NCBI GenBank assembly: GCA_964427785.1
Contig: CAYRVJ010000001.1
Coordinates: 1-48,896, forward strand
Origin: an uncultured Alphaproteobacteria bacterium
Lineage (GTDB): Bacteria; Pseudomonadota; Alphaproteobacteria; SHNJ01
Direction of reading: 5' to 3'
DNA length: 48,896 nt
The notes beneath the pieces are model-generated. The model saw only the letters and a program-made list of their open reading frames with translations. It did not search any database and was not told the origin of the DNA. The translations under genes and the position numbers were made by a program. Positions 336 through 47,837 of the stretch are shown here, piece after piece; positions within the stretch are counted from its first letter, which is position 1; every line of letters begins with the position of its first letter.

Positions 336-455
336 ATGAACAAAGAACAATTCAAAGGAACTGTCGATCAGGTAAAAGGCAAGATCAAGGAAACTTGGGG
401 ACGCCTTTCAGCAATAGCTACGCCGCCTTTAAAGCCAATGGCCATCATCAAATAA
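336..455 (+). pseudogene. Truncated CsbD-family stress protein fragment (39 codons)
   Basis: AAGGAGA RBS at 324-330 and ATG at 336. The N-terminus MNKEQFKGTVDQVKGKIKETWGRL matches the CsbD-family signature, but the conserved C-terminal half is replaced by unrelated residues. The 3' end overlaps the convergent AT-rich ORF 448-999 by 8 nt. Confidence 0.5.
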
Positions 456-999
456 AGTGAAAGATACCGTAAACTACCTTTATAAGTCTGTCATGTATCT
501 CAATGATGTATCCTAAAGATAAGGCCACTTCCTGCTTAATATCGAAGAGATTGTGAGCTATAACACGATCTCTATATTTTTTTAATTCGATCTTGGCTGG
601 GCTGCTATCATTATTTAATTGTATACCAGCCTGGAGATTTTCTATTGCAAGCTTCTCATTGTAAGCTGCTAATCCTAATTCAGGTGGATTCCAATTTCGG
701 GCATTTTGAATGATTAGTGATTTTAGTTCTGTGTCATTTTCAACTTCTTGGATTAATGTAGCAATAGATGCCCTATTGTTTCCGTAACCATCAAGCATTT
801 TATTAAGTAATAGTATCCATTCTTGTAGTAAACATCTATGGATTATGTTGAGTCCCCATACTTCCGGACTTTGATCGAATTTAGTTTTGAGTTTCTCGCT
901 GTCATTTTGCCTAGAAAACATGCATTCTACTGTTATGGCAGTTCGTGCATCTTGAAAAATCTCTTCTATTATTTGAGTGATTCTCTCAATTTTATTCAT
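448..999 (-). CDS. Hypothetical protein, possible HEPN/AbiU2-like (abortive-infection type) protein
   Basis: 183-aa ORF in a visibly AT-rich patch. The composition looks all-helical. The C-terminal third carries YRDRVIAHN, which fits the HEPN Rx4-6H motif (R[ND]xxxxAH-like as in Abi-type HEPN proteins). There is no partner gene. Confidence 0.4.
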   Translation of the reverse strand: MNKIERITQIIEEIFQDARTAITVECMFSRQNDSEKLKTKFDQSPEVWGLNIIHRCLLQEWILLLNKMLDGYGNNRASIATLIQEVENDTELKSLIIQNARNWNPPELGLAAYNEKLAIENLQAGIQLNNDSSPAKIELKKYRDRVIAHNLFDIKQEVALSLGYIIEIHDRLIKVVYGIFHFI

Positions 1000-1025
1000 A
1001 AGCTTCTCATTTTTGTTAGCACTGG

Positions 1026-1466
1026 GTCCCTCACCAACACCACTTCGCCTTTCGGCATTTTTCTCCGGCTATGATAGCAAAAGGCGAACTGCGGGGAAAT
1101 GGCCGGAGAAAACGGGCTATAGTTTTATAAAATTCTCTGAGAATGCGCGGCTGTGTAGGCAGCAGAGAAGGGAATAGCGCCACAAGCATTTGAAATATCG
1201 GATCAATTCCAGCGAATACGCGAACCCGCCAACTTGTACCGGACTCAATGGCGGTGGTGGGAGTCTAGCACGATGAATTCTCTCGTTCTATAGGTGGAAT
1301 TCCCTGCTAACAGGGAAAATAACAGAGAATTTGGGCGGTTTCAATACGCCAAAGGCGAAGGGTGGAGAAAAAAGCGCGTTATTATGGCGGGCTAGGGGCA
1401 ATTGCAGAGCGAATTCCCTAGAGAGAAAACAGGGAATTTTTAAAATATTGCTGGGAATTTATAAAT
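1026..1466 (+). repeat. Copy A (full length) of a ~430-bp hairpin-rich repeat family
   Basis: Aligns by eye over its whole length with 35875-36300. A 98-nt core (1244-1341) is identical to 36093-36190. It contains nested hairpins: GAATTCTCTCGTT...AACAGAGAATT enclosing TTCCCTG-CTAA-CAGGGAA at 1300-1317. A terminal hairpin AATTCCCT-N11-AGGGAATT (1412-1438) is followed by TTTT. Ends are approximate. Confidence 0.85.
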
Positions 1467-1483
1467 AGAAGCAGGCTATCTTA

Positions 1484-2350
1484 TCACTTTAATTGCATCA
1501 GCGTGGATTCAAGTAATGAAGTCTGCCAATGCAATACTAGAAGTGAAAGCCCGCCTGTTAAGATAAAAATAACAGTAGGGACAACGAACGGGATAAACGC
1601 CAGACGGGATTCCGATTGCTTCAATATCCAATTTTCCAATGAGCTTTTTGAATTAGAAAGCCAAGTTTTTAATAATAAGACAAAGCTTATAAACGCCACT
1701 ACCGTTACAATGCATATCACGGTATCAACGGCAAGGATTGCGGATTCGGCCAGCCTATGGAAATTTTGTAACTGTTCTGGCGGTGCGTCATAGCCTGAAT
1801 TTCCATTTAACCACATTATATAATGCCGGATGCCGATTTGCCTGCTGGCTTCCCATCCAAATGCCAGCGCCCAGACGGCTAGCAATCCACGATAATATTG
1901 CTGGGTGGGATTGCTTACGGTCACAGTCTGAGTTTTGGTTATGCGTTCATGCCAAGTGCGGGATGTTTTAGATGCTTTAATGCAATCGAAAAAATAGATG
2001 ATGGAAGAAAGAAAAATAAGAAGATTGCGTCCTAAGGCTGTTCCAAAAGAAATCCGGCCGCCTTGTTCGTTTGCAACTCTAATGCCAAAACAAATGTGCC
2101 CAAAACTGGCCTGCCAACGCGAACATTCCATGGCCGCGCGACATAATAAAAAAGCGACTATAGGCAGCAATGCCCATAAATTAACAGGCCAAGATGCCGC
2201 AAAATTTATAGTGGTGGCAAGATTCGGAATCGGCATGTGCCGATCCCACGGCGATATTGCATAAGGAATTACCACCCAAACTATGCTGAAGAAAATTAGG
2301 ACATCCAATTGCCATGCCAAAAGTCTTTTCCATATATGCGCAGTTGCCAT
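1484..2350 (-). CDS. RDD-family integral membrane protein (paralog 1)
   Basis: 288 aa. The N-terminus WKRLLAWQLDVLIF...ASFGHICFGIRV...GRNLL...TWHERITKT fits the RDD-domain pattern, and extra TM helices follow. Colinear with the divergent ORF at 2502-3380. Confidence 0.7.
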   Translation of the reverse strand: MATAHIWKRLLAWQLDVLIFFSIVWVVIPYAISPWDRHMPIPNLATTINFAASWPVNLWALLPIVAFLLCRAAMECSRWQASFGHICFGIRVANEQGGRISFGTALGRNLLIFLSSIIYFFDCIKASKTSRTWHERITKTQTVTVSNPTQQYYRGLLAVWALAFGWEASRQIGIRHYIMWLNGNSGYDAPPEQLQNFHRLAESAILAVDTVICIVTVVAFISFVLLLKTWLSNSKSSLENWILKQSESRLAFIPFVVPTVIFILTGGLSLLVLHWQTSLLESTLMQLK

Positions 2351-2432
2351 ACCGGTCTCCCCAAATTGCTGCCTTTATATGTAACGGTTGAGGATATATT
2401 AGTCAATCTTAGGTTGTATCCGGTATGGCTAG

Positions 2433-2470
2433 AATTTCCTGGAAAAATAATAGGAAATTTTTATAATAGG
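2433..2470 (+). repeat. Isolated copy of the repeat-family terminal hairpin module
   Basis: AATTTCCT-N11-AGGAAATT followed by TTTATAATAGG. This is nearly the same as the 3' end of copy B (AATTCCCT-N11-AAGGAATT-TTTATAATAG). It lies in the divergent promoter region between the two RDD genes. Confidence 0.6.
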
Positions 2471-2501
2471 ACAGAATTCATTTTTGGAGAGGAGATTATA
2501 T

Positions 2502-3380
2502 ATGTCCACGATTCATTGGAGAAGATCGCTGGCTTGGCAATTGGATTGGATGTTATGTATTATAATTATTCAGGCGATTGCGTATCTTTTTTCTATTAAG
2601 TCATTTCAATCGGCAATCATTCCAAATATTGGTCTCCATGCAAATTTTATTTTGGGGTTTGCCATAACCACTCATATTTTGTCTCTAAGCATGCCATCAA
2701 TTGATATGGTTATACCTATAGTCTTTTTCTTGCTGTACCGTTCTATTATGGAATCTTCAAAGCAGCAGGCAAGTGTGGGGCATATGTTTTTCGGGTTGAG
2801 GGTTGTAGATAGCTTTAATAATAAAGTATCTTTCCTTACGTCTATGTTGAGAAATTTTTTAATTTTTATTTCTTCTTTGATTTTGTTTCTTGATTGCTGG
2901 AAATCGCTTCGATCTTCCTCGACATGGCATGATCGCGCCACTAATACCACAACGGAGATTGTGTCATCAGTGGATTCACGAGATCGCGGTTTGGCAATTT
3001 TGTATCTGTGTGCGTTTGGCTATGTTGCATGGATTTCAACAAGAACAAATAGATACGTAGATTGGCTGAGTCAATATACGGATTCTATGAACTCAGAACA
3101 AATTCAACAACAAAAAAATATGGTGCAACTGGCGCATGCGGTAATACAGAGCACAATATATAGTAGCTTAACCATCGTCATTATAGGGTTATTATTTTTA
3201 TGTAAAAGCTTCTTGTTCAACAAAGTGAATGTTCGCAAGAATTGGATTCTACGACGCGAAGCCTACCTGGCTATCGGCGCCTTCCTGATGCCTGCTCTAT
3301 TAATTATGTTAACGGTAGGCTTTTCTCTTTATATTTTGTATGAGCAAAATCAGGCTTTAATAAATTCAATACCTAGATAG
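2502..3380 (+). CDS. RDD-family integral membrane protein (paralog 2)
   Basis: GGAGAGGAG RBS ahead of ATG 2502 (the ORF track starts at TTG 2484). WRRSLAWQLDWML...ASVGHMFFGLRV...LRNFL...TWHDRATNT is colinear with paralog 1. Very AT-rich. Confidence 0.7.
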   Translation: MSTIHWRRSLAWQLDWMLCIIIIQAIAYLFSIKSFQSAIIPNIGLHANFILGFAITTHILSLSMPSIDMVIPIVFFLLYRSIMESSKQQASVGHMFFGLRVVDSFNNKVSFLTSMLRNFLIFISSLILFLDCWKSLRSSSTWHDRATNTTTEIVSSVDSRDRGLAILYLCAFGYVAWISTRTNRYVDWLSQYTDSMNSEQIQQQKNMVQLAHAVIQSTIYSSLTIVIIGLLFLCKSFLFNKVNVRKNWILRREAYLAIGAFLMPALLIMLTVGFSLYILYEQNQALINSIPR

Positions 3381-3402
3381 TTTTGAATAACTACTTATCT
3401 TT

Positions 3403-4563
3403 TTATTTAGGAAGCCTATCTTTTTCTGGACCGTTTTTGAGTGCATTAATTAATTGGCTCCGGGTAAGTTCATTAATTCCGCGATCCCCGAATGAAATTA
3501 CACCATCGGATTTACCGCTTCCTGTTCTCATTTTCTGATCCAGTTTCTTAATATTTTCTAGGATGATTACGTCTCTGTCGTTGCCTGCATCTTTATTCAC
3601 TTTAATCATGTCGTCAATATTTTGCATGTGTTGCTGAAATTCCTTTTCGGTAATTTCATTGGCAATGGGCTTACCAATCATATCAATAGCTTTAGAGGTC
3701 AAAGACCCCCCAATAGCACCCGCAGCTTCGAGAGACCAATCCAAAGTTTTGGCTTGCGGAGTCGGAGAAATCTTACGTGGATCTAAAGGAATTTGTTGCT
3801 GAGGCGGTTTCTGACTCCCCAGATCTTTTGGCGCATCCGGACCATATTCTTCCGGTTCCGGTTCTGGCGCAGGCAGCGGCGGGCGGTTAGGATCGAACGG
3901 GGATGGCGGCATCTGATCTTTCGGCCAATCGGGATAAGGCGGCTGGCGCCGATCCAATTCCGGATCATCCGAAGCTTCAGATGAATCGGCGCGCTGCATG
4001 GCCGCAAGTAGATGGGACGGCATAGCATCGATTTGCCGTTTAATGCCATCAAAAAAATCATGATAGGATTGATCCGGCTGCGGCTGGGATATATCCAGAT
4101 CCGGGAAATTTTCCTGAATCGTGTTAAACGCATAATCCTTATGAACATCATGCCAAGTTTTGCGGATCATATCGCCGGTTTGCTTGCCAAGCGCGAAAGG
4201 ATCGTTTGGCGATGGATATTGCGGCAAATCGCCCAAATCGGATCGCTGCAATCCCCAATTGCCCATCCAGTCGCCCCAACCGGTTTTGTCTTGCGGAGGC
4301 TGCGCCACATAAGGGGGCGTGGTTGTCGGCAACCCAAAGGTAGGTTGCTGCAGGGTAAATTCCGGTGTATCGGCAGGTTTGCCAAACATATTGGCAAGTC
4401 CGGTAATCAAATCCACTATTGGAGGTTTCTTTTTCTGCCAATCCCATTCGCCGGGCAGCAGTTTCTGAGGTTGCGACGAGGATGTTAATGCATCGAAATT
4501 GTTGATTTGCTGAGAAAAGGGCAAGCCAAATAACCCGCCTCCTGGCGGTTTATTAAAGAACAT
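3403..4563 (-). CDS. Proline-rich, low-complexity hypothetical protein
   Basis: 386-aa ORF. It is rich in P/Q/D with repeated PP motifs (PPYPDWP, PPLPAPEPEPE). I see no signal peptide or TM segment. The helical C-terminal ~100 aa are more ordinary. The other-frame ORFs inside it look like shadows. Confidence 0.65.
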   Translation of the reverse strand: MFFNKPPGGGLFGLPFSQQINNFDALTSSSQPQKLLPGEWDWQKKKPPIVDLITGLANMFGKPADTPEFTLQQPTFGLPTTTPPYVAQPPQDKTGWGDWMGNWGLQRSDLGDLPQYPSPNDPFALGKQTGDMIRKTWHDVHKDYAFNTIQENFPDLDISQPQPDQSYHDFFDGIKRQIDAMPSHLLAAMQRADSSEASDDPELDRRQPPYPDWPKDQMPPSPFDPNRPPLPAPEPEPEEYGPDAPKDLGSQKPPQQQIPLDPRKISPTPQAKTLDWSLEAAGAIGGSLTSKAIDMIGKPIANEITEKEFQQHMQNIDDMIKVNKDAGNDRDVIILENIKKLDQKMRTGSGKSDGVISFGDRGINELTRSQLINALKNGPEKDRLPK

Positions 4564-4664
4564 ATGGTTTTCCTTTATAAAGGTTGATGTTTGTGCACAA
4601 AAAATCCTGCGTCGCTGAAGCTATGCAGGGCGCGGTCCGCCCCGATTTTTATCGTGCGGACATT

Positions 4665-4695
4665 AAAAAACCCGCTTCGGCAAGGCCTTAGCGGG
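4665..4695 (-). terminator. Rho-independent-terminator-like hairpin (minus strand; possibly bidirectional)
   Basis: On the minus strand it reads CCCGCT-loop-AGCGGG followed by TTTTTT (4665-4670). On the plus strand the stem is followed by GGATTTTG. It lies in the 4564-4897 intergenic region, which also contains other hairpins. Confidence 0.45.
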
Positions 4696-4897
4696 GGATT
4701 TTGCTGACCCGTCGGTCAGTAATTACACTTGTGTAAGTGTATAAAAATCATACCATAAAAATTTAAAAAATCAAGCTTTCTGGAAACTTTGCCGCGAAAA
4801 GAGCAATTCAGAATGAATATTTTTATGGAGGGTTCCGCTTTTTTAGAAATTTGCAGAGAAAATTTCGTGCACAACTCCGAGCCAGGGCGTGGAGTTT

Positions 4898-5108
4898 CGG
4901 TGGTGGGAGTCTGGCACGATGAATTCTCTCGTTCTATAGCCGGGATTCCCTGCTAACAGGGAAATTAACAGAGAATTTCCGCGGTTTTGGCTACTCTAAA
5001 GACGAACGGTAGAGAAAAATGCCCTGATTGCGGCGGGTTAGGGTGAGTATAAGATAAATTCCCTAGAAAAATTACAAGGAATTTTTATAATAGAGCAGGG
5101 ATTTTAAT
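4898..5108 (+). repeat. Copy B (3' module only) of the hairpin-rich repeat family
   Basis: Aligns with 1252-1466 and 36101-36300, including both nested hairpins and the terminal AATTCCCT-N11-AAGGAATT-TTTT hairpin (5057-5083). It lacks the 5' ~225-nt module. Confidence 0.8.
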
Positions 5109-5232
5109 ATGTTTATCAAAGAAAAAGTACTCTATCTCTAATTTGCTTGAAATAGCAAATCGGCGAAATCGCAAGGGTTGTAGCGTATGACAAATCTGCT
5201 ATGAAAAGAAACGGAAATACGGGATTTTTGTA

Positions 5233-6300
5233 ATGAATCGTTATGATCGTCAAATACGTTTGCCGGAAATTGGCCGAGAGGGGCAAGAAAAGCTCTTGAC
5301 GTCTTCGGTTTTGTGCGTAGGGGCTGGGGGACTAGGATCGCCAGCGTTGCTCTATTTGGCTGCGGCCGGAGTAGGGCGCATCGGTATTATCGATTTCGAC
5401 CGTGTGGATGAAAGCAATTTGCAACGGCAGATTTTATATTCCAATGCCGCTGTGGGCCAGTTAAAAGCAACGCAATCTGCGGACCGTTTAAGCGCTTTAA
5501 ATCCTGCGATTCAAATAGATGCCTATAACGAGGAATTGAACGCGGAAAGCGCTGCGCGATTGTTTCCTGTTTACGATATTATTCTGGACGGAACGGATAA
5601 TTTTGAGGCTAAATTTTTAATCAACGATGCTGCCGTAAAATACGGCAAGACCTGGATTTACGGCGCTATTCAGGGCTTTGATGGGCAGGCTAGCGTTTTC
5701 AATTATAAAGGCGGACCTTGTTACCGCTGCCTATACCCCGAAAAACCAAGCCAGCCTGTTATGAATTGCGCCGAAGCCGGAGTTATTGGCGCAGTAGCGG
5801 GAATTGTAGGCGTCACGCAAGCTTTGCAGGCTATTCAGATTATCGCCGGTCATCCCAGTTTTGAGATTTTAAGCGGAAGATTATGGAGGGTGGATACGCG
5901 CACGATGCACACACAGATCCTTAATATACAAAAGAATCGGGCTTGCGTCATTTGCTCGCGCGAACCGAATGCTATTGTTCCGCAATACGCTTCCCCTGTT
6001 TGCGGCGCGGTTTCTGAGATCTCGGTGCGGCGGGTAAAGAATAAAGTAAATTATGTTCTTATCGACGTGCGTGAACAAGAGGAATGGGATAAAGGGTCTA
6101 TCAAAGGCGCGATTTTATGGCCGCTTTCCAAGATTATAGCTGGGCATATGCCTGAATCATATCGCGGAGAAGAAATTATTCTTCACTGCCAAAAGGGTAA
6201 GCGCAGCATGCAAGCGGTAGATATTTTGAGAGCGCATGGATTTGCCGACGTAAAGAGTCTATCCGGCGGATATGAAGCTTGGCTTGAAGATGCTCAATAG
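5233..6300 (+). CDS. moeB: Molybdopterin-synthase adenylyltransferase/sulfurtransferase (ThiF/MoeB domain fused to rhodanese)
   Basis: YDRQIRLPEIGREGQEKL...CVGAGGLGSP...DFDRVDESNLQRQ is the ThiF/MoeB E1-like signature. CxxC pairs are present. The C-terminal rhodanese domain has the active-site loop HCQKGKRS. Confidence 0.85.
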   Translation: MNRYDRQIRLPEIGREGQEKLLTSSVLCVGAGGLGSPALLYLAAAGVGRIGIIDFDRVDESNLQRQILYSNAAVGQLKATQSADRLSALNPAIQIDAYNEELNAESAARLFPVYDIILDGTDNFEAKFLINDAAVKYGKTWIYGAIQGFDGQASVFNYKGGPCYRCLYPEKPSQPVMNCAEAGVIGAVAGIVGVTQALQAIQIIAGHPSFEILSGRLWRVDTRTMHTQILNIQKNRACVICSREPNAIVPQYASPVCGAVSEISVRRVKNKVNYVLIDVREQEEWDKGSIKGAILWPLSKIIAGHMPESYRGEEIILHCQKGKRSMQAVDILRAHGFADVKSLSGGYEAWLEDAQ

Positions 6301-9710: not shown

Positions 9711-10700
9711 CTAGCCGCCAATAGAGGCTAAATGAGGCGTTGCGCCCGTGTTTCCATCATGCAGGAAATGCGTTGATGTTTTATAGGCCATTAGATTGAT
9801 GATTTTGTCTTGTAATTCTTCGATTTGATCGTCTGATTGCAACAAAAATCTCAAGGAATGGCCTCCTTCACCGAATAAGCAAAGATGCAAGTCTCCCTTG
9901 GCGGAAACGCGCAGGCGGTTGCAAGTCTTGCAGAAATCTTTTGAGTAGGGAGCGATAAGGCCGATTGTGCCCATGCTTTTATTGTGTTTAAACTCAATCG
10001 CTGGCCCGGCGCCTTCCTTACGCGGTAAAATACCCCAGCCTTTTTGCAGCAATCTTTTCGTTACTTCGGTCCCGGGCAAATGATGCTCAGCAAAATACGC
10101 TTTATTCTCACCTGTTCGCATCAATTCAATAAAACGCAGCGACACCGACTTATCGGATACAAAATCTATAAATTCATCCAATTCATTATCATTCAAACCT
10201 TTCAGCAGAACAGTGTTTATTTTTATGTTTTTGAACCCCACCCGGAAACATTCCTGCATTCCTTCTAAGATTTCACCTAAACGCCTATGGCCTGTGATTT
10301 TCTCGAACTGTTCCGGCTTTAGGGAATCAATGCTGATATTGATGGCGCGCAGCCCGGCATCATAATAGTCCCGCGCGCGTTCCGGAAGTTTGTATCCGTT
10401 CGTAGTAAAGACCAGCTTGCGTAGGCCGGGCAGGGATGAAATATCTCTCGCGATATCCAGAAAATCCGGCCGCACGGTGGGTTCGCCTCCCGTTAAACGG
10501 ATCTTCCAAACGCCAAGCGATATAAAAGCTTTTGCGAGTCTGCGGATCTCGTCTCTCGACAAGAAACTTTCGCAGCCGGATTTCTTATAGCCGTCCGGCA
10601 AGCAGTAGGAACAACGGAAGTTGCATACATCCGTGATGGACAGGCGCAAGTACGGAAAACGCCGCCCAAAACTATCCGCAATCTGCGGGTTATTGGTCAC
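9711..10700 (-). CDS. moaA: GTP 3',8-cyclase (radical SAM)
   Basis: YLRLSITDVCNFRCSYC radical-SAM CxxxCxxC motif, and a C-terminal CxxCxxxxxxxxxxxxxC cluster (CKTCNRLRVSAKGDLHLC). GTG 10700 is preceded by an AAGGAG RBS. The TTG 10781 start in the ORF track is rejected. Confidence 0.9.
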   Translation of the reverse strand: MTNNPQIADSFGRRFPYLRLSITDVCNFRCSYCLPDGYKKSGCESFLSRDEIRRLAKAFISLGVWKIRLTGGEPTVRPDFLDIARDISSLPGLRKLVFTTNGYKLPERARDYYDAGLRAINISIDSLKPEQFEKITGHRRLGEILEGMQECFRVGFKNIKINTVLLKGLNDNELDEFIDFVSDKSVSLRFIELMRTGENKAYFAEHHLPGTEVTKRLLQKGWGILPRKEGAGPAIEFKHNKSMGTIGLIAPYSKDFCKTCNRLRVSAKGDLHLCLFGEGGHSLRFLLQSDDQIEELQDKIINLMAYKTSTHFLHDGNTGATPHLASIGG

Positions 10701-10832
10701 TTTATAGTCTCCTTTCCAAAACGGGGAGGCCGGAGCGTTTCCACTCGCGACCCCGGCTAACCGACCATATCTATGACACAAGATTTAGGCGCGGAGAGCT
10801 CGGAGTTGCCATGATGTTAAGTATGGCGAAAC
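10701..10832 (-). promoter_or_regulatory. Candidate molybdenum-cofactor (Moco) riboswitch in the moaA leader
   Basis: The minus-strand leader reads ...AACUCCGAGCUCUCCGCGCC...GGUUAGCCGGGGUCGCGAGUGGAAACGCUCCGGCCUCCCCGUUUUGGAAAGGAGAC-GUG. The CUCCGAGC, GCCGGGG/CCCCG, GGAAAC, GGCCUCCC and terminal GGAAAGGAG(RBS) blocks resemble the Moco RNA motif as I remember it, and the position before moaA is the classic one. Not verified with a covariance model. Confidence 0.55.
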
Positions 10833-35793: not shown

Positions 35794-35874
35794 GAGCGAG
35801 GGGATACTTGGATTTGAGCCAATTCTACGCAAGCTGATACACCATACAATAAATCTAATTATAGAAGGCAAAGA

Positions 35875-36300
35875 GTCCCTCACCAACACCACTTCGCCTT
35901 TCGGCGTTTTTCTCTGGCTATAATAGCAAAAGGCGAACTCCTGGGAAATGGCCGGAGAAAAGGGGCTATAGTTTTTTAAAATTCTCTGAGAATGCGCGGC
36001 TGTGTGCGCGGCAGAGAAGGGAACAGCGCCACAAGCGTTTGAAATGTCGCATCAATTACCGGGAATAGCGGAACCCGCCAACTTGTACCAAACTCAATGG
36101 CGGTGGTGGGAGTCTAGCACGATGAATTCTCTCGTTCTATAGGTGGAATTCCCTGCTAACAGGGAAAATAACAGAGAATTTGGGCGGTTTGGGTTGAATG
36201 AAAGGCGAAGTGCGGAGAAAAAGGGCTGAATTGTGGCGGCTTATGCGACGGCGCAGGGAAATTCCCTAGACTGCAAACAGGGATTTTGTAATTTGTCATA
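35875..36300 (+). repeat. Copy C (full length) of the hairpin-rich repeat family
   Basis: Same orientation as copy A and colinear with it. Contains the identical 98-nt core at 36093-36190. Confidence 0.85.
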
Positions 36301-36396: not shown

Positions 36397-36783
36397 ATGA
36401 AAAAAATCCTCTCCAGCATTCTTATTATTTCTATCCTCGCGCTTTCGACTTTGTGCGCGATGCCGGTTGTTCATGCCAAGAGCAGCGCTCAGCAAGCCTC
36501 GCATTGCGAAACGGGCAATCATCACGATAAAAAAGATGCATCCAAAAATCTAATGTTGATGCAGGATTGCACCGGCGTCGATCTTCAATTGACCAAGGTT
36601 TTTACGCTGGAAAAACCCGATCTGCAAAAGCATTTGGTTTCCTATGTTTTGGTCAATGAATCCTATGGCTTTGGGTATGATCCAAGCCTGACCGGCGCGA
36701 TACGTGGCCCGCCCGATTGGCCGGGACTCTTTAACGCCACTTCTCCTTCCATTATTCTCAGCACGCAACGCCGCCTGATATAG
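36397..36783 (+). CDS. Secreted hypothetical protein with a His/Cys-containing N-terminal region
   Basis: Signal peptide (MKKILSSILIISILALSTLCAMPVVHA), then SHCETGNHHDKKD...QDC. It precedes the multicopper oxidase gene. Confidence 0.55.
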   Translation: MKKILSSILIISILALSTLCAMPVVHAKSSAQQASHCETGNHHDKKDASKNLMLMQDCTGVDLQLTKVFTLEKPDLQKHLVSYVLVNESYGFGYDPSLTGAIRGPPDWPGLFNATSPSIILSTQRRLI

Positions 36784-36836
36784 GTTCCCCTGCGCTCAAT
36801 TTAATTTTGCGCAGTTTTTTTATTTGGGGAATTTCT

Positions 36837-38447
36837 ATGAGGCATTTTTTATTTATTTTTGCTTTTATTTTATCGGCATCGTTCGCCATTGCGGCAGAAG
36901 CGGCGGAATACCGCCTTACCATTGCGCGCGAAACCGTCAATATTACCGGTAAACCGGTTGAAAAGATAACTGTTAATGGCACTATTCCGGCACCGACATT
37001 ACGTTTTACTGACGGCGAGGATGTCGTTATCCATGTCACCAACAATATGGACGAGCCGTCCTCGATCCACTGGCACGGTCTGATCCTGCCCGGCGAGATG
37101 GATGGCGTCCCTGGCTTTAACGGTTTTCCGGGTATTAAACCGCATTCGACTTTCACCTACCGTTTTAAAATCCGGCAGACTGGTACCTATTGGTATCACG
37201 CGCACAGCATGGGCCAGGAACAGGACGGGCTGTATGGTTCGATCATAGCCGCACCCGCCGGGATTGACCCCATCCGCACCGACCGCGATTATGTAATCGT
37301 GCTGTCGGATTTTACCGACGAAGATTCGGACGACATTATGGCCAATCTGAAAATGGCCTCGGATTACTATAACGTCGCGCGCCGGACGATTGGCGATTTC
37401 TTGGGCGATGTGAAAGCCAAAGGTTTCGATAAGGCTTGGAAAGATGCCAAGGATTGGGGCGATATGCGCATGTCGCCGACGGATCTTTCGGATGTTGGCG
37501 GTTACACATTCCTAATTAACGGCAAAACGCCCGCGCAAAACTGGACAGGAATTTTTAAATCCGGCGAACGTGTGAGACTGCGCTTTATCAACGCGTCCGC
37601 CATGTCGATTTACGATGTACTACGCATTCCGGGCCTGAAAATGACGGCGGTGCAGGCAGACGGGCAGAATATCGAACCCCTGAAAATAGACGAGTTCCGT
37701 TTCGCGCCGGCGGAAACATATGATGTCGTGATCACGCCGGAAGAAGACAAAGCTTATACCATCGCCGCCGAATCCATCGACCGCACCGGATTTGCCATCG
37801 GCACGCTTGCGCCGCGCGAAGGTATGAAAGCCGAAATCCCGCCGCATCGCCCGCGCGCGCTTCTGACGATGGGCGATATGGGCGGCATGATGGATATGGA
37901 AGATATGGTGATGACGCCGGAAGACATGAAAAGCGGCTGGGCCGAAGCCGGAACGCCCAAAGACGATAAGGCGCTTAGCTATAAAGATCTGCGTTATGCC
38001 GGAATCCAGAAAGACACGCGCGAACCTGGGCGTACCATCGAAGTGCGTTTGGGCGGGAATATGGAACGGTATATCTGGACGATCAATGGAAAGAAGTTCA
38101 TCGATGCCGATCCGATCCGCCTAAAATATGGTGAACGGGTACGGTTGAATTTTACCAATGACACGATGATGGCGCATCCGATGCATTTGCATGGCATGTT
38201 CGTGCAATTGGAAAACGGACAGCCTGCGGAAAAACTGCCCAACAAGCACACCGTGATCGTCCCGCCGGGACAATCTTATTCGGTGCTGCTAACAGCGGAC
38301 GAAGCCGGAGAATGGGCGTTCCACTGCCATCTTTTATTCCACATGATGTCGGGAATGATGACCAAAGTGGTGGTCGCCAAACTGGATGCGGTGGATATTC
38401 CCGATAATATTCCCGCACCGGCCCAAGGAGGTTCCCATGCGCATTAA
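36837..38447 (+). CDS. copA: Copper-resistance multicopper oxidase (CopA/PcoA type)
   Basis: Four copper-ligand motifs are present (IHWHG, YHAHS, HPMHLHG, HCHLLFHMMSGM), together with a Met-rich loop (MGDMGGMMDMEDMVM). ATG 36837 precedes a signal-like N-terminus. Confidence 0.9.
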   Translation: MRHFLFIFAFILSASFAIAAEAAEYRLTIARETVNITGKPVEKITVNGTIPAPTLRFTDGEDVVIHVTNNMDEPSSIHWHGLILPGEMDGVPGFNGFPGIKPHSTFTYRFKIRQTGTYWYHAHSMGQEQDGLYGSIIAAPAGIDPIRTDRDYVIVLSDFTDEDSDDIMANLKMASDYYNVARRTIGDFLGDVKAKGFDKAWKDAKDWGDMRMSPTDLSDVGGYTFLINGKTPAQNWTGIFKSGERVRLRFINASAMSIYDVLRIPGLKMTAVQADGQNIEPLKIDEFRFAPAETYDVVITPEEDKAYTIAAESIDRTGFAIGTLAPREGMKAEIPPHRPRALLTMGDMGGMMDMEDMVMTPEDMKSGWAEAGTPKDDKALSYKDLRYAGIQKDTREPGRTIEVRLGGNMERYIWTINGKKFIDADPIRLKYGERVRLNFTNDTMMAHPMHLHGMFVQLENGQPAEKLPNKHTVIVPPGQSYSVLLTADEAGEWAFHCHLLFHMMSGMMTKVVVAKLDAVDIPDNIPAPAQGGSHAH

Positions 38448-39153
38448 AATTCTAGGTTTGGCTTTGCTGTTTTTAACTTCTCCCGCGCTGGCCGAAGAAA
38501 TCACCCATGATATGGCGGCGGAACATGGCGGCGGCATTTTCCATATGTTTCGTTTTGAGGCCGATTATGGAGGCAGTTCCAACGGCGCGGTTGCCAGCTG
38601 GGATTTGGACGGCTGGGTCGGCGGGGATGATGACAAGCTTTGGATCAAAAGCGAAGGCGAGCGCGCCGACGGCAGATTGGAACAGGCCGAATTTTGGGCG
38701 CTGTATAGCCGTAACATCGCAACGTTCTGGGATGCGCAGGCTGGCATCCGTTATGATGCAAAGCCCGAATCCACTGCTTATCTCGCCTTCGGCTTTACTG
38801 GGCTTGCGCCTTATTTCTTTGAAACCGAAGCGCATGTGTTTATCAGCGATGAAGGCGATCTCAGCCTGCGTCTACGAGAAGAGAACGACTTTCTTCTGAC
38901 GCAGCAACTTATTCTGCAGCCTTATGTGGAAATCAATCTCTCCGCCCAGGACGTGCCGGAAAACGATATTGGCTCCGGCTTCACCAGCGGCGAGATAGGA
39001 TTGCAAACACGGTATGAGTTCACACGCAAGTTCGCGCCATATTTGGATTTACGATACGAGCGCAAGTTTGGCGAAACGGCCTCTATTGCCGCAAGCGACG
39101 GAGAAGACAAAGACAATTTCATCGCCGCAATCGGTTTGCGGCTTATGTTTTAA
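38437..39153 (+). CDS. copB: Copper-resistance outer-membrane protein CopB/PcoB family
   Basis: AAGGAGG RBS and a signal peptide. WDLDGWVGGDDDKLWIKSEGE...AQAGIRYD... is typical of CopB, and the sequence ends with an aromatic beta-barrel terminus (RLMF). Confidence 0.85.
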   Translation: MRIKILGLALLFLTSPALAEEITHDMAAEHGGGIFHMFRFEADYGGSSNGAVASWDLDGWVGGDDDKLWIKSEGERADGRLEQAEFWALYSRNIATFWDAQAGIRYDAKPESTAYLAFGFTGLAPYFFETEAHVFISDEGDLSLRLREENDFLLTQQLILQPYVEINLSAQDVPENDIGSGFTSGEIGLQTRYEFTRKFAPYLDLRYERKFGETASIAASDGEDKDNFIAAIGLRLMF

Positions 39154-39173
39154 CCCCAACGAAAGAAAAGACT

Positions 39174-39854
39174 ATGAAGAAAATAATTCTAATAATGGCA
39201 CTGGCATTGCTGGCAAGCCCCGCCATGGCCAAAGAATATATCATCAAGGAAGTCAGCGATCCTGCGGGTAAGACGCCTTATTATTTCTCGCCGGACAAAT
39301 TAACCATCCAGCCGGGCGATACCGTCACCTTCGTCAACGTGCAGGAAGACATGCATGATGTGATGTTTATCAGTGTTCCAAAGACGGTTGATGAAATGAT
39401 CATGAGCCCGAAACACGAAAAAGAAGGCGAGAAATGGTCTTATAAATTTACCGTTCCAGGCACATATCAATTCCATTGCCATGCGCATGAGGCACTGGGC
39501 ATGAAAGGTACATTGATCGTCGGTCAAGCCTCGAATGCCGGTGAAACTAAAACGATGGATCACCATAAAATGACGGAAAAATATGAGAGTGATTCCAGCG
39601 GCCATGCAGGGATGGGAGCATCGAATCTTCCGCAAGGTACGGGTAGGATTAACAATGTTGATGAGGACAAACGCACGATCAACATTACCCACGATCCGAT
39701 CAAGGCGCTCGGCTGGCCGAAAATGAAAATGGAATTTCCGGTCGATAAAAGCGTTGATTTATCGGGTTTAAAAGCCGGTGATGCTGTGTCGTTCACTTTA
39801 AAGCCAAGCGCGAATGATGATTACAGCATCAACACGATCAAAAAAGGAGAGTAA
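39174..39854 (+). CDS. Periplasmic cupredoxin (plastocyanin/pseudoazurin-like) fused to a CusF-like copper-binding domain
   Basis: Signal peptide. The type-1 copper motif YQFHCHAHEALGMKGTLIV is present, and the C-terminus GRINNVDEDKRTINITHDPIKALGWPKMKMEFPV is CusF-like. Confidence 0.75.
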   Translation: MKKIILIMALALLASPAMAKEYIIKEVSDPAGKTPYYFSPDKLTIQPGDTVTFVNVQEDMHDVMFISVPKTVDEMIMSPKHEKEGEKWSYKFTVPGTYQFHCHAHEALGMKGTLIVGQASNAGETKTMDHHKMTEKYESDSSGHAGMGASNLPQGTGRINNVDEDKRTINITHDPIKALGWPKMKMEFPVDKSVDLSGLKAGDAVSFTLKPSANDDYSINTIKKGE

Positions 39855-39856
39855 TT

Positions 39857-40141
39857 ATGAAACTATATTTGTTTCTTTTGGCAATTATTTTAGGAACCGC
39901 TTTCTTCACGAATCCGGCTTATGCTGAGCAAAAACCTGCTTCGCAAATCGTGCCGCCCAAATACGAGCATTTACCGGCGAGGGAATTTAAACGCCACAAG
40001 GCCGGTATTAGACGGATGGTTCATTTACCACCGATGTTGATTCAAAAAATCGATGTACTGGACGACAGCCGAATGTCGAGCGGTGAAATCGCCATTCCAG
40101 ATGTGCCGCGTTCGACGTTTGAGAAATACCAATCCAAGTAG
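39857..40141 (+). CDS. Small secreted hypothetical protein
   Basis: 94 aa with a signal peptide (MKLYLFLLAIILGTAFFTNPAYA). It starts 3 nt after the upstream stop. Confidence 0.5.
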   Translation: MKLYLFLLAIILGTAFFTNPAYAEQKPASQIVPPKYEHLPAREFKRHKAGIRRMVHLPPMLIQKIDVLDDSRMSSGEIAIPDVPRSTFEKYQSK

Positions 40142-40211
40142 TTTATTTTATTAAGTTACAGCGGGTAATACCATGACTCATCTTAACCACTTTTATAAAG
40201 GAGCTTTCAAT

Positions 40212-40574
40212 ATGAAGAAATTTAATGCTTTAAGGCAATTTTTTATTCTATCATTTGCAATACTTTTATTGTCCGGCTGCGCCAGCAACGGTACGGATGC
40301 CGCCAGTGGCCGTCCGATGTGTCCCATGATGGACGGTAAATCATGTTGTGAAAAGATGATGGAAGGCAAAACTTGTTGCTGTTGCCAAAAAATGATGGAA
40401 AACTGCATGATGAAGGATGGCAAGCCGATGGACATGAAACAGTGCCAACAAATGATGCAAGGCGGGATGATGAAGGATCAATCGGTAGCGCCTGCTGATA
40501 TCCAACCTGCTCCTGCTGCAAGTTCAGAGGATCATAAAAAGCATCACACGCAAGACAATAAAGAGGTGAAATAA
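40212..40574 (+). CDS. Met/Cys-rich lipoprotein (putative copper-binding)
   Basis: AAGGAG RBS and a lipobox LLSGC. The mature part has repeated C/M clusters (CPMMDGKSCCEKMMEGKTCCCCQKMMENCMMKDGKPMDMKQCQQMMQGGMMKD). Confidence 0.65.
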   Translation: MKKFNALRQFFILSFAILLLSGCASNGTDAASGRPMCPMMDGKSCCEKMMEGKTCCCCQKMMENCMMKDGKPMDMKQCQQMMQGGMMKDQSVAPADIQPAPAASSEDHKKHHTQDNKEVK

Positions 40575-40813
40575 TGGCACACGATCATCAGCATGATCCG
40601 AATTGTCATAAACCGCATAATCTTATGCGGTTTATGTGGCTAATTTATTTGACACTAGCCGGTATCGTCATCCTCTACTTGCTGGAATATCACTGGCAGC
40701 ATACGATTGGCGTTCTGCCATATCTGATTTTATTGTTATGCCCCCTGATGCATTTCCTAATGCCGCACGGGCATCATCGCCATGATGAAAAAGACAATAC
40801 GCCAAAATCATAA
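40574..40813 (+). CDS. Small His-rich membrane protein (DUF2933-like) preceding the Cu-ATPase
   Basis: 79 aa with two TM helices flanked by His-rich ends (MAHDHQHDPNCH..., MPHGHHRHDE). This arrangement is common upstream of heavy-metal P-type ATPases. Confidence 0.6.
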   Translation: MAHDHQHDPNCHKPHNLMRFMWLIYLTLAGIVILYLLEYHWQHTIGVLPYLILLLCPLMHFLMPHGHHRHDEKDNTPKS

Positions 40814-40834
40814 TCGTCACAGGGAGTAAGTTTC

Positions 40835-43054
40835 ATGCATCAGCATCAGGTTAAGACTTCGGAAACGGGCAGTTGCCATCATGCTAAACCGGACGCGAAG
40901 CATGAAGCTCCTCTCAAAATAGCATCGGGCGGCGCAGATGCGATCTACACTTGCCCGATGCACCCGCAAATACGTCAAAAAGGGCCAGGCAATTGCCCGA
41001 TCTGCGGCATGGCGCTGGAGCCTGAGAATATCGCCATTCAAGATGGGCCTGATCCCGAATTAAAAGATATGAGCCGCCGCTTTTGGGTGGCCGCCATCTT
41101 ATCCGCTCCGTTGTTGCTGTTTAGCATGGGCGGGCATTTTTCCAATGAGATGCTGCATGCATTTCTAATGAGTCCGCTTGCCACCTGGGGCCAATTGGTC
41201 ATCGCAACGCCTGTAGTTTTATGGGCAGGATGGCCATTTTTCGAGCGCGGCTGGATGTCGATAAAAAATAAAAATTTGAATATGTTTACTCTTATCTCGC
41301 TTGGCGTCGGTGTCGCCTATTTCTACAGTCTATTCATTACGCTATTCCCAAGTTTTATAGAGCAATGGCTGGATGGAACGAATCTTTCCAAAGACGTTTA
41401 TTTTGAAGCCGCTGCTGTGATCACCGCGCTGGTTTTGTTGGGTCAGGTTTTGGAGCTGCGCGCACGCGCGCAAACTTCGAGCGCGATGCGGGCGTTGCTT
41501 GATCTTGCTCCAGCAACGGCGCGTATTATCCGCTCTAATGGAAACGAGGAGGATATTCCATTAGCACATGTACATAAGGGGGATATTCTGCGCGTCCGTC
41601 CCGGTGAGAAAATTCCCGTTGATGGTATTTTGCTTGAAGGCAAAAGTTCCATCGATCAATCGATGATCACCGGCGAACCGATACCGGTGGAAAAGAATCC
41701 CGGCGAAACCGTCATCGGCGCTACCATTAACGGTACCGGCAGTTTCACCATGCGCGCGGAACGGGTAGGACAGGAAACTTTGCTTGCGCAAATCGTGGAT
41801 ATGGTGGCCAAAGCGCAGCGCACGCGCGCGCCCATTCAAAGGCTCGCGGATAAAGTGTCGGGCTATTTTGTTCCTGCAGTGATCGCAATCGCCGTGCTAG
41901 CTGCCGTTATTTGGGGAATTTATGGCCCCGAACCAAAAACCGGCTATGCGATTCTTAATGCTGTAGCGGTACTTATCATTGCGTGCCCTTGCGCGTTAGG
42001 TCTGGCGACGCCTATGTCCATCATGGCCGGTACGGGCCGTGGTGCAAAGGCAGGAGTGCTGATTAAAAATGCCGAAGCATTGGAAGGATTCGAGAAAGTC
42101 GATACCTTGATTGTCGATAAAACCGGCACCTTGACCGAAGGCAAACCGAAATTGATAACTGTGGTTGCGGAGCAAGGTTTCGATGAACAAACCGTACTGA
42201 CTTTTGCCGCAAGCCTGGAACGTGGCAGCGAACACCCTTTGGCAGCAGCTATCGTACAAGGCGCGGCGCAACGTAAACTGGAACTGCATAACCCAGCAGA
42301 TTTTCAATCTATTACCGGCAAGGGCGTTACCGGTACCGTACAGGGCCGAAAAGTGGCGTTGGGAAATCTTGCCTTGCTGGATTCAATGCGTATAGATGCA
42401 TCGCATTTAAAAAGTCAGGCGGATAATTTCCGGGCGCAAGGGCAGACGGCCATGTTTGTGGCGATAGACGGCAAGTTAGCGGGGCTGGTCACTGTCGCCG
42501 ATCCGATCAAAGCTACAACAATAGAAGCTATTAAGCTTTTGAAGGAGGATGGCCTGCATATTGTTATGCTGACCGGCGATAATAAGACTACAGCGGCAGC
42601 GGTTGCCGCGAAAGTCGGTATCGATGATGTGATCGCGGACGTATTGCCCGATCAGAAAAACGCCGCCGTCCGCAAGTTACAAGAGCAAGGACATAGCGTG
42701 GCTATGGCAGGAGACGGAATTAACGATGCGCCCGCTTTGGCGCAGGCCAATGTCGGGATCGCCATGGGAACCGGCGCGGATGTTGCTATGGAAAGCGCGG
42801 GCATCACGCTTATAAAAGGCGATTTGATGGGCATCGTGCGCGCAAGGCATCTAAGCCGCGCAACCATGCGCAATATCCGGCAAAACCTGTTCTTTGCTTT
42901 TATCTATAACGCACTGGGCGTGCCGATTGCTGCAGGCGTCCTGTATCCGTTTTTTGGTATTTTGCTTAGCCCTATTTTTGCCAGTGCGGCGATGGCATTC
43001 AGTTCGGTTTCCGTTATCGTAAATAGCTTACGGCTCCGGTCGACGCGGCTTTAG
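40835..43054 (+). CDS. copA: Copper-translocating P1B-type ATPase
   Basis: N-terminal [24 protein letters not shown] metal-binding domain. The CPC motif ([13 protein letters not shown]), DKTGTLT, MLTGDN and [10 protein letters not shown] are all present. Confidence 0.9.
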
Positions 43055-44509: not shown

Positions 44510-44885
44510 TAACGACGAATATCAGGTTGGCTATGCCAAGCCGCCGAAAAATACCCAATTCCAGCCCGGTAAAAGCGGAAACCCGAAAGGCCGTCCAAAG
44601 GGCGCGAAGGGGATTGCCACCGTCTTTATGGAAGAGGCGAATCAGAAGGTTTCGATCAAAATCGGCGATAAAACCGTGAAAATCACGAAATTGCAGGCGA
44701 CCGTGAAGCGGCTATTCCAGCAAGCGCTGGAGGGTAAGCCGCACGCCATCGCCCGTATTACCGAGATGGCGCGGGTTATCGAGCCGCAAATGGAACAAAA
44801 GCCGGATCAGGCCTTGTCGGCGGACGATCAGAATATTCTTCGCGAATATGTAAAGCGGCAAATGCAGGACGGCGTCGATGGTTGA
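44496..44885 (+). CDS. DUF5681-like phage protein (small-terminase position)
   Basis: GYAKPPKNTQFQPGKSGNPKGRPKGAKG is the N-terminal signature. It lies immediately upstream of, and overlaps, the large terminase gene. Confidence 0.65.
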   Translation: MTDDNNDEYQVGYAKPPKNTQFQPGKSGNPKGRPKGAKGIATVFMEEANQKVSIKIGDKTVKITKLQATVKRLFQQALEGKPHAIARITEMARVIEPQMEQKPDQALSADDQNILREYVKRQMQDGVDG

Positions 44886-47384: not shown

Positions 47385-47837
47385 ATGCCGGATTTGCATT
47401 CATTGGATCATAAAATTGCTGACTTGAAAAAATGGGATCGTGTGGAGCTGATCGAGGAGTGGGAATCGCTCTGGAAGTTGAAGACGCCAAAGTCCATCAG
47501 CCGGGAATTATTGATCCGCAGCATCGTCTATAAATATCGCGAACAGGAACATGGCGGATTGCCCGTAGCGGTGCAAAAAGAATTAAACCACCTGATAAAA
47601 ATTTACCGTAAAAATCCAAACCAAAATCTCAAAAAAAGCCCACGCATTAAACCCGGCACCAAATTGATACGAATGTGGGAACAGGAAACCCACGAAGTGT
47701 TGGTGCTATCGGATGGATATCTGCACAAGGGCAAAACCTATCAAACCCTATCGCAAGTCGCGCGTCAAATTACCGGAACGCGCTGGTCTGGGCCACTGTT
47801 TTTCGGCCTGCGCAAAAACAAGGATGAAGCTGCATGA
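47385..47837 (+). CDS. DUF2924-family protein (recombinase-associated)
   Basis: AAAGGAG RBS. The C-terminus G..L.R.W....HEV.V...GY...G.TY.TLS.VAR.ITGTRWSGPLFFGL is the DUF2924 signature. The stop overlaps the recombinase ATG (ATGA). Confidence 0.75.
   Translation: MPDLHSLDHKIADLKKWDRVELIEEWESLWKLKTPKSISRELLIRSIVYKYREQEHGGLPVAVQKELNHLIKIYRKNPNQNLKKSPRIKPGTKLIRMWEQETHEVLVLSDGYLHKGKTYQTLSQVARQITGTRWSGPLFFGLRKNKDEAA

Follow-up and report, generated by a model that had tools for sequence, protein, structure and literature searches.

The window analyzed here is a stretch of 48,896 nt from an uncultured alphaproteobacterium (contig CAYRVJ010000001.1 of assembly GCA_964427785.1). It carries two full copies (c1 and c3), one half copy (c2) and one terminal fragment of a non-coding repeat, which we refer to as element E, and copy c3 stands at the left border of a higher-GC island that ends in genes for a DNA methyltransferase, a DUF5681 protein, a large terminase subunit, a DUF2924 protein and a large serine recombinase. 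This set of copies had been proposed as a repeat family in an initial annotation made from the sequence alone, and it was borne out by a repeat finder and by alignment. The initial annotation did not recognize that the repeat represents a single lineage within a family spanning several phyla, nor that it is associated with serine-recombinase islands. Sequence comparisons incline us to the view that E is the attachment region, or landing pad, of phage-satellite-like serine-recombinase mini-islands of ~6.5 kb plus cargo. The features of the window are collected in Table 1.

Table 1. Features of the window, in order of position. L numbers denote other E loci and contigs; HMM, hidden Markov model.
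Feature	Position	Strand	Remarks	Basis
E copy c1, full	1026-1466	+	90% identity to c3	Alignment; core HMM match
c1 5' arm	1026-1240	+	Dyads CTTCGCCTTT/AAAGGCGAA and TTTTTCTCCGGC/GCCGGAGAAAA; lacking in c2	Sequence reading
c1 core dyad	1241-1266		GGACTC-N14-GAGTCT with TGGCGG box (1249-1254); recurrent recombination junction	Boundaries of c2 and L207/L270
c1 nested dyads	1275-1331		GAATTCTCTCGTT (1275-1287) and AACAGAGAATT (1321-1331) around TTCCCTG-CTAA-CAGGGAA (1300-1317)	Sequence reading
c1 3' module	1411-1453	+	AATTCCCT-N11-AGGGAATT (1412-1438), then T-run; overlaps TAGAGA-16-TAAAAT (1419-1446)	Repeat families D3/D4; promoter scan
Segment of ~1 kb	1467-2431		Holds RDD-family gene 1484-2350 (-); bracketed by direct 3'-module copies	Layout as in L272
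Solitary 3'-module fragment	2432-2474	+	Last ~43 nt of E; promoter-like TGGAAA-16-TATAAT (2440-2467)	
E copy c2, half	4898-5108	+	From core junction (CGGTGGTGGGAGTC) to 3' end	Alignment; core HMM; promoter scan
c2 hairpin	4946-4963	+		
c2 3' module	5056-5098	+		
c2 promoter-like site	5064-5091	+		
E copy c3, full	35875-36300	+	Left border of higher-GC island	Repeat finder; alignment; core HMM
Island cargo	36397-43054	+	128-aa protein, multicopper oxidase, CopB, cupredoxin/CusF fusion, P-type ATPase with heavy-metal-binding domain	Pfam
ParB_N-N6/N4 DNA methyltransferase	43187-44509	+		Pfam
DUF5681	44496-44885	+	PHROG function unknown	Pfam
Terminase large subunit	44878-46344	+		Pfam; PHROGs 5.5e-108
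DUF2924	47385-47837	+		Pfam
Large serine recombinase	47834-48896	+	Runs off window	Pfam Resolvase + Recombinase; PHROG integrase

Copies c1 and c3 are colinear, and positions 1005-1304 match 35854-36153 with 90% identity by both the repeat finder and alignment. The perfectly identical core of 98 nt that had been annotated in these two copies measured 98 to 99 nt in direct reading (1243/1244-1341 and 36092/36093-36190). The half copy aligned over 4898-5040 with 75% identity to 1252-1394 of c1 and 82% identity to 36101-36243 of c3. A core HMM built from 149 members of the E family matched c1 at 1249-1333 (E = 1e-14) and also matched the cores of c2 and c3. The 3' module occurs four times in the window, starting at 1411, 2432, 5056 and 36259, and c1, c2, c3 and the solitary fragment all lie on the same strand. 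The repeat contains no credible open reading frame (ORF), and every dyad named for it earlier, including the a-b-a'-b' segments at 1044-1113, was located in c1. The recurrent half-site stood up only in part: AGGGAAW is not enriched across the window (21 sites against 17.2 ± 3.8 in shuffled sequences), but it is clustered, with 12 of the 21 sites falling inside the ~1.1 kb made up by the three E copies.

Across the family, E is about 300 to 600 bp long, and conservation begins at the core dyad, the region of 1241-1266 in c1. The core is dyad symmetric (TGGCGG...GTCTCCGCC), with the dyad form GACTGNG-TGGCGGNGG-CNCAGTC ... CGAACCNGTCTCCGCC. The consensus runs from (GACTGNG)-TGGCGGNGG-(CNCAGTC) through ~5 variable nt and CGAACCNGTCTCCG to the hairpin AAATTCCCTG-CTAA-CAGGGAAA, and then through a third box, AACAGGGAATTT, and ~70 variable nt to the 3' module. 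This last part is the same module as in the window; it lies ~115 to 165 nt past the hairpin and reads AATTCCCTA-N-GAACAGGGAATT, TATCAGGGAATT, plus another box or its complement. Between four and eight CAGGGAAT boxes follow the core in both orientations, and box arrays flank the core on either side. In an acidobacterial subfamily (14 loci), a conserved 5' extension reaches ~330 nt upstream and contains AAACCGGAC...GTCCGGTTT and CAGAGAAA...TTTCTCTG; the motifs of this extension correspond to those in the 5' halves of c1 and c3, and the 5' arm of c1 shares TTCTCCGG and CAGAGAA with it. Within E, the copies of the window form a lineage that has diverged and is richer in AT, with AACAGAGAATT and GAATTCTCTCGTT in place of two family boxes. 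At five loci with the recombinase gene upstream of E (L254, L258, L074, L089 and L145), the motifs CCAGGAACGGGAATTTT, GGAGACNGG and CGAACCGGTCTC recur in the 150 to 700 nt between the recombinase stop codon and the E core, which suggests that motifs upstream of the core in loci of this kind form a second arm of putative binding sites.

To collect the family we used the hairpin 20-mer ATTCCCTGCTAACAGGGAAA as a search seed, and the hairpin is therefore invariant by construction in the loci obtained. The seed was found at no fewer than 120 loci in JGI metagenomes, mostly from soil, peat and bog, at no fewer than 120 loci in GTDB genomes and in 29 IMG/VR contigs. Among the matches listed, the hosts span at least 5 phyla and the GC content of the loci ranges from 36% to 67%. 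They include Acidobacteriaceae, Korobacteraceae, Sulfotelmatobacter, Acidiferrales, Chthonomonadales, Solirubrobacterales and Chlorobiaceae, together with Xanthobacteraceae (Pseudolabrys, Bradyrhizobium and Rhodoplanes among the names), Reyranella, Stellaceae and Burkholderiales. The 20-mer GCACGATGAATTCTCTCGTT of the window lineage gave no match among 185,579 GTDB species genomes, and the 22-mer GATGAATTCTCTCGTTCTATAG gave none in IMG/VR. A 19-mer from the 5' module had a single chance match in IMG/VR (L273), with no similarity beyond it, and blastn against plasmid and phage collections returned nothing but short matches to other E copies. Literature searches that included literal sequences, DUF2924, DUF5681 and satellite keywords turned up no description of E or of the genes beside it. 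E is thus apparently an undescribed, large non-coding family of soil bacteria in several phyla. Many contigs (L009, L036, L044, L061, L078, L080, L088, L090, L094, L112 and L253) stop within a few tens of nucleotides of the hairpin, which is what repeated copies of E in those genomes would cause by interrupting assembly.

We then counted gene contexts in 240 genome and metagenome loci, each with a few kilobases of flank, and in the 29 IMG/VR contigs. A module of ~6.5 kb, encoding a large serine recombinase, DUF2924, a ParB_N-N6/N4 DNA methyltransferase, DUF5681 and a large terminase, recurs beside E. The recombinase/DUF2924 part, the methyltransferase/DUF5681/terminase part or both adjoin E in 27 of the 29 IMG/VR contigs. 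In 48 of the 240 other loci, a recombinase and/or a ParB_N-N6/N4 methyltransferase lies within a few kilobases, and the window, too, has both genes. The module takes three forms. In architecture A (19 contigs), E is followed by the recombinase and DUF2924 genes on the minus strand and then by the methyltransferase, DUF5681 and terminase genes on the plus strand. In architecture B (L266, L269 and the window), E is followed by (a small ORF and) the methyltransferase, DUF5681, terminase, DUF2924 and recombinase genes, all on the plus strand. In architecture C (L254, L258, L260 and L267), DUF2924 and the recombinase come first, then E, then the methyltransferase and the rest. Circular permutation of a single map relates architectures B and C, and in the circular form E adjoins the 3' end of the recombinase gene. 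This 3' end lies 186 to 750 nt from E in 34 genome or metagenome loci and 24 viral contigs, the adjacency looked for in an attachment site. The methyltransferase-DUF5681-terminase trio lies downstream of E and in the same direction in 24 IMG/VR contigs and ~20 other loci; the methyltransferase and DUF5681 genes are on the opposite strand in IMG/VR contigs L245 and L253 and in loci L239 and L032. E thus borders these modules, and in most contigs its orientation is fixed relative to the methyltransferase-terminase genes. Since host genes directly follow the terminase gene in architecture A, the module is only ~6.5 kb long, without capsid genes, and is therefore satellite-like. As an element combining a terminase with a serine recombinase at this size, it seems to be undescribed.

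Apart from this module, the flanks of E are without synteny and hold diverse accessory, defense and transposase genes. Upstream genes lie on the plus strand in 43 cases and on the minus strand in 27, and downstream genes in 29 and 44 cases, respectively. At loci with no module in reach, the first downstream ORFs are diverse, the most frequent Pfam assignments being Resolvase/Recombinase (5), rve_3 (4), N6_N4_Mtase (3) and DDE transposases (3). In Methylocapsa polymorpha pRX1, E is followed by two hypothetical proteins and then a site-specific DNA methyltransferase; on a conjugative plasmid of Bradyrhizobium, a recombinase fragment precedes E; and on a Sphingobium megaplasmid a reverse-transcriptase-like defense gene lies downstream of E, with a type I restriction enzyme also nearby. 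A protein of 225 to 273 aa encoded downstream of E was considered as a core, box-binding gene product and rejected, being heterogeneous and not universal. Just 3' of E in the related loci L099, L184 and L186 (+200 to +3000) lies an IS66-family element with three ORFs, including a 517-aa transposase. The downstream region that these three loci share is largely this insertion and was rejected as a conserved extension of E.

Homology between E copies breaks off repeatedly in two places, one at TGG|CGG in the core and the other in the 3' module. At the first, the left boundary of c2, TTT|CGGTGGTGGGAGTC (TTT|CGGTGG), corresponds to position 1252 of c1, within the core, and L207 and L270 are 90% identical from ATGGCGG rightward and unrelated to the left. 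At the second, a 6.5-kb module of type A in L272 lies between E (+121 to +163) and a second, 42-nt copy right after the terminase gene. This bracket scored 52 in alignment, with a null maximum of 26, and a profile of the 3' module matched the fragment as well. Extra copies of E are 5'-truncated and share a common 3' end. Orientation was direct throughout, both for solitary 3'-module fragments (L272, L228, L077, L190, L210 and L132) and for full cores, namely, the pairs in L123, L155 and L206, which are 1.9 to 7.1 kb apart, and the three cores of the window. Between paired cores lie insertion sequence (IS) elements, a gene for a TIR-domain protein (L123), a TonB-dependent receptor-like gene and others. 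Two dyads, GACTGCG-N10-CGCAGTC and TGGCGGAG...CTCCGCCA, are present in E, with the junctions at their left edge; E as a whole is far larger than the known attachment sites of large serine recombinases. The core of L145 is split by a fragment of an IS5-type transposase at about -520 to -30 from the hairpin, after GCAGTCTTATG and before TTAGTCGAACC, and this locus was rejected as an attachment junction in favor of an IS5-type insertion.

If E is a landing pad, the recombinase, possibly together with DUF2924 or another box-bound factor, would recombine the E-like site of a circular element with a resident E. One junction would thereby regain a full E, while the other would receive the displaced 3' fragment, as at tRNA/tmRNA genes and the SCCmec (staphylococcal cassette chromosome mec) site. 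Decayed or recombinase-less inserts would be left as cargo segments between E fragments, and solitary copies would be relics serving as new targets.

Several observations weigh against such a role. The junctions lie at the left edge of the dyads and not at their center, where serine recombinases normally cut. To our knowledge, the large serine recombinases described so far use simple sites of 40 to 50 bp and not arrays of 300 to 600 bp. A significant direct-repeat bracket was found in only 1 of 10 A-type loci tested, the other 9 having none, and the window-type modules L266 and L269 have no second E-like sequence or direct repeat after the recombinase gene. No empty-site counterpart was recovered for the occupied E sites, and among pairwise identities over E5', E3' and the downstream region, close pairs were too few for hybrid junctions to be detected. 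About 80% of the genome and metagenome loci have no recombinase or terminase gene within the available few kilobases. Most copies of E thus appear to stand alone, and they would be products of decay, borders of distant cargo or targets. Finally, the elements with a replacement 3' segment point to pressure for an intact E, which would fit a functional gene such as one for an RNA.

A broader view of the same observations, which we hold to be doubtful, is that E is a conserved, non-coding platform for site-specific recombination, where large serine recombinases integrate and release their own islands and any DNA between two E copies, and which is possibly also transcribed into a large RNA. If so, it would be an integron-like or SCC-like cassette exchange system common to soil bacteria of several phyla.

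Equally doubtful is a reading of E as a gene that encodes a large structured RNA of ~450 to 600 nt and serves as an integration target, with the islands carrying replacement 3' segments to preserve its function. E forms a discrete unit whose ends are defined, its copies share the 3' end, and its layout of full copy plus 3' fragment is typical of RNA-gene targets. A structured non-coding RNA (ncRNA) with conserved helices was among the three options of the initial annotation, which could match the repeat to no known class. A search of the window with Rfam at the gathering score found only a molybdenum cofactor (Moco) riboswitch and nothing on E; in a scan of 950-1550 at E ≤ 10, the best match, at 16.9 bits, fell short of the gathering score of 70, and twelve related loci gave no Rfam match. 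Folding of c1 was more stable than that of shuffled sequences on both strands (z = -3.7 for plus and -3.9 for minus), so that it is dyad-rich with no strand preference, and the stable folding of the plus strand speaks for an RNA, the equal folding of the minus strand against one.

Covariation was weak. From an alignment of 149 E sequences differing by more than 11%, RNAalifold predicted a single structure, the invariant seed hairpin, and an unbiased scan for pairing columns turned up only helices of invariant sequence. Two named helices were examined individually. S1 (GACTGCG/CGCAGTC) was paired in 53 to 71% of cells, with G-U and A-C counts of 77 and 94, which tells against an RNA. S2 (GGCGGAGGA/TCTCCGCC) was paired in 83% of cells, and once one fixed G.T pair is set aside G-U exceeds A-C by 90 to 32, in favor of one. 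Overall, the two helices were paired in 80% of cells, with a covariation of 0.095 against 0.081 in shuffled alignments, and the G-U and A-C counts gave no clear sign of one strand. Occasional compensatory changes do occur, as in GACTG/CAGTC to GACTC/GAGTC, in GGCGG..CCGCC to GGTGG..CCAC (the exchange of C-G for U-A in S2, seen in 21 sequences) and in CCAGAGAAA/TTTCTCTGG against CCGGAGAAA/TTTCTCCGG; in the long subfamily they affected only 2 of 44 predicted pairs on the plus strand and none on the minus strand. The CAGGGAAT boxes are fixed in sequence on both strands and are never swapped for another complementary pair. Such invariant two-strand boxes are the pattern of DNA sites recognized by a protein, or of hairpins recognized by their sequence, and not of an RNA constrained by its fold. 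The scans also showed no conserved upstream promoter and no terminator, and the absence of synteny, the several copies per 49 kb and the mixed orientations of flanking genes are likewise at odds with an RNA gene. These data place the conservation of E in its primary (DNA) sequence rather than in RNA structure, but they are weak, and an RNA role keeps some probability. Among the options of the initial annotation, a clustered protein-binding array and a relation to mobile elements fit best, and a structured ncRNA is not supported. A small RNA that sequesters CsrA/RsmA was rejected because the ACAGGGA boxes sit in stems with their complements on the same strand and because many hosts are Hyphomicrobiales. 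Inspection of the core by eye also led us to reject hammerhead-like, tRNA/tmRNA 3'-end-like and sigma-54 promoter readings, as spacings and invariant positions did not fit.

E keeps its place and direction ahead of the methyltransferase, DUF5681 and terminase genes even where the recombinase module has moved or switched strands, which could also mean that the box array is a pac/cos-like packaging site for the terminase of the satellite. The dyad core would then be cleaved, and solitary copies would be relics or would allow neighboring DNA to be packaged. We consider this improbable. The terminase assignment is strong and a DNA methyltransferase adjoins it, and boxes in mixed orientation beside a symmetric site resemble lambda cosN/cosB and the pac sites of P1 and SPP1. 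However, 2.3 kb of sequence (recombinase and DUF2924) separates E from the terminase operon in the commonest architecture, the homology breaks and direct-repeat fragments at E point to recombination, and the PHROG matched by DUF5681, at most a candidate small terminase subunit, is of unknown function.

The 3' module raised the further question of transcription from E. The initial annotation had likened its hairpin and T-run to an intrinsic terminator. A terminator scan made no call on this hairpin, which has an 11-nt loop and three G-C pairs, at 1412-1441, 5057-5087 or 36260-36290; three of the four copies are instead promoter-like. The three best plus-strand sigma-70-like matches within 900-5400 are the three 3' modules there (10/12, 10/12 and 9/12), and box half-sites surround the -35 hexamer and spacer of these promoter-like modules. 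Three of the four modules precede plus-strand genes, namely, the RDD gene at 2484, the moeB-like gene at 5233, and the 128-aa protein and copper operon at 36397. It is plausible from these matches that outward promoter activity is a second role of the module, perhaps driving the downstream genes. That E is chiefly a regulatory cassette, in which a promoter and operator half-sites for a CAGGGAAT-recognizing repressor head the island operons and are reused upstream of cargo, seems to us very improbable. The module of c1 runs into the 3' end of a gene on the minus strand, the c3 module was not called in the sigma-70-like scan, high-GC relatives have no evident -10 hexamer, and what E faces in the most frequent architecture is the 3' end of the recombinase gene. 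Such a cassette would also leave the core, the junctions and the 300- to 600-bp size unexplained.

Least probable of all is that E is a self-spreading, non-autonomous transposable element, one-ended, 5'-truncating or like a miniature inverted-repeat transposable element (MITE), with incidental recombinase proximity or shared hot spots: it is multi-copy and intergenic with internal inverted repeats, 5'-truncated copies with a common 3' end and a patchy cross-phylum distribution, and many metagenome contigs break inside it, but its unit ends (GTCCCTCACC... and ...GGGAATTT) are not inverted repeats, which goes against a classical MITE, no target-site duplications were seen, blastn found no IS end and no plasmid or phage match beyond other E copies, neighboring copies are all direct, which random insertion would not produce, copies have diverged with host GC instead of being nearly identical, and E is closely linked to one specific gene module (27 of 29 viral contigs). 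The end of a Tn7-like or Mu-like transposon was rejected since neither side of E has conserved transposition genes.

Returning to E as a landing pad, we judge it somewhat the better bet that c3 forms the left junction of an island for copper resistance, which ends in a truncated recombinase. GC content climbs from 0.43-0.46 to 0.51-0.54 from about 37 kb, past c3, and searches of the island core genes against PHROGs gave phrog_498 at 8e-132 and phrog_38 at 5.5e-108. The recombinase was called as 381 aa, compared with about 565 to 580 aa in relatives (window, 47834-48896; L242, 10450-11595). Contig JACCDT011276741.1 (GCA_013565695.1) ends 63 nt past the recombinase stop codon, 146 nt past the end of the window. 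The recombinase gene is probably a pseudogene, and the island is therefore likely to be immobile. For the series of c1, the fragment at 2432 and c2, the balance tips slightly toward scars of at least two older insertions, of the RDD genes and of a 386-aa protein.

Immediately left of c1 lies a gene for a HEPN AbiU2 abortive-infection protein (448-999, minus strand), and defense genes also occur near other E loci, such as the TIR-domain protein in L123 and the Sphingobium plasmid genes. The solitary fragment is flanked by divergent RDD-family paralogues, the second of them at 2484-3380 (plus strand), and c2 lies upstream of a moeB-like ThiF-rhodanese gene (5233-6300). The Moco riboswitch (RF01055, 62.2 bits) is at 10693-10817 on the minus strand, upstream of a Moco-biosynthesis operon; in locus L001, the domains of this operon are Radical_SAM/Mob_synth_C, MoaC/MoCF_biosynth and MoaE. 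The moeB-like gene next to c2 is placed divergently. Within the copper island, a 36-nt direct repeat with 60-nt spacing (40383-40478, plus strand) lies in a 133-aa ORF (40173-40574) that has no Pfam or PHROG match; from its sequence, it may encode a Met/His-rich metal-binding repeat.

If E is indeed a landing pad, one conserved non-coding module would flag the places where soil bacteria such as Acidobacteriota and Xanthobacteraceae, abundant but little studied, preferentially acquire genes. Acquisitions observed at E include copper resistance, anti-phage defense and transporters. The seed ATTCCCTGCTAACAGGGAAA together with the TGGCGG core provides a simple sequence handle for island borders in metagenome-assembled genomes, and serine recombinases with a conserved and naturally widespread target would be of practical interest for engineering. 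If E were instead a functional RNA, it would be among the larger bacterial RNA families without a description.

E shows only some of the features of a serine-recombinase attachment site, and it does not qualify as an Rfam family, a terminator, a MITE or a CsrA sponge. We compared it with known systems. Like E, repetitive extragenic palindromic sequences and bacterial interspersed mosaic elements (REP/BIME), enterobacterial repetitive intergenic consensus (ERIC) sequences, Correia elements and MITEs are intergenic, dyad-rich and multi-copy and occur in mosaics of full and partial forms. E is much longer than these, has no terminal inverted repeats or target duplications, is uniformly direct in orientation, is conserved across phyla and is linked to one recombinase module. 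Closer in organization are the attP arms of lambda and res sites II and III of Tn3/gamma-delta, which, like E, combine a crossover-type dyad with repeated candidate protein-binding boxes over 200 to 300 bp beside a recombinase gene, although the minimal sites used by known large serine recombinases lack arms and the E junctions lie at dyad edges. The islands share with phage satellites (phage-inducible chromosomal islands [PICI], P4-like elements and PICI-like elements [PLE]) a small size, an integrase and packaging genes without capsid genes, and a presence in viral-contig collections. They differ in gene set (large serine recombinase, DUF2924, ParB-methyltransferase, DUF5681 and large terminase in ~6.5 kb) and in having no known helper, and our literature search found no described satellite family with these genes.

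At SCCmec, where CcrAB acts and direct repeats lie at the rlmH end with pseudo-SCC forms, serine-recombinase islands likewise form tandem segments delimited by direct repeats, some of them recombinase-less, and carry resistance genes, as the island of the window does. The SCCmec site is short and lies in a conserved coding gene of one genus, whereas E is a 300- to 600-bp non-coding module found across phyla, and the SCCmec core genes are unrelated to the methyltransferase, DUF5681, terminase and DUF2924 genes of the E islands. At tRNA and tmRNA integration targets, as at E, a full copy is accompanied by downstream direct 3' fragments, two or more sublocations serve as junctions, the recombinase gene lies beside the target, and several inserts can stand in tandem. 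E differs in not being a known RNA gene, in having no conserved neighborhood and in its box arrays, and its islands have large serine recombinases in place of the tyrosine integrases of tRNA/tmRNA-targeting islands. By analogy, tRNA/tmRNA targets with sublocations and SCCmec-type islands appear to be the closest functional parallels to E, and the island itself resembles a phage satellite.

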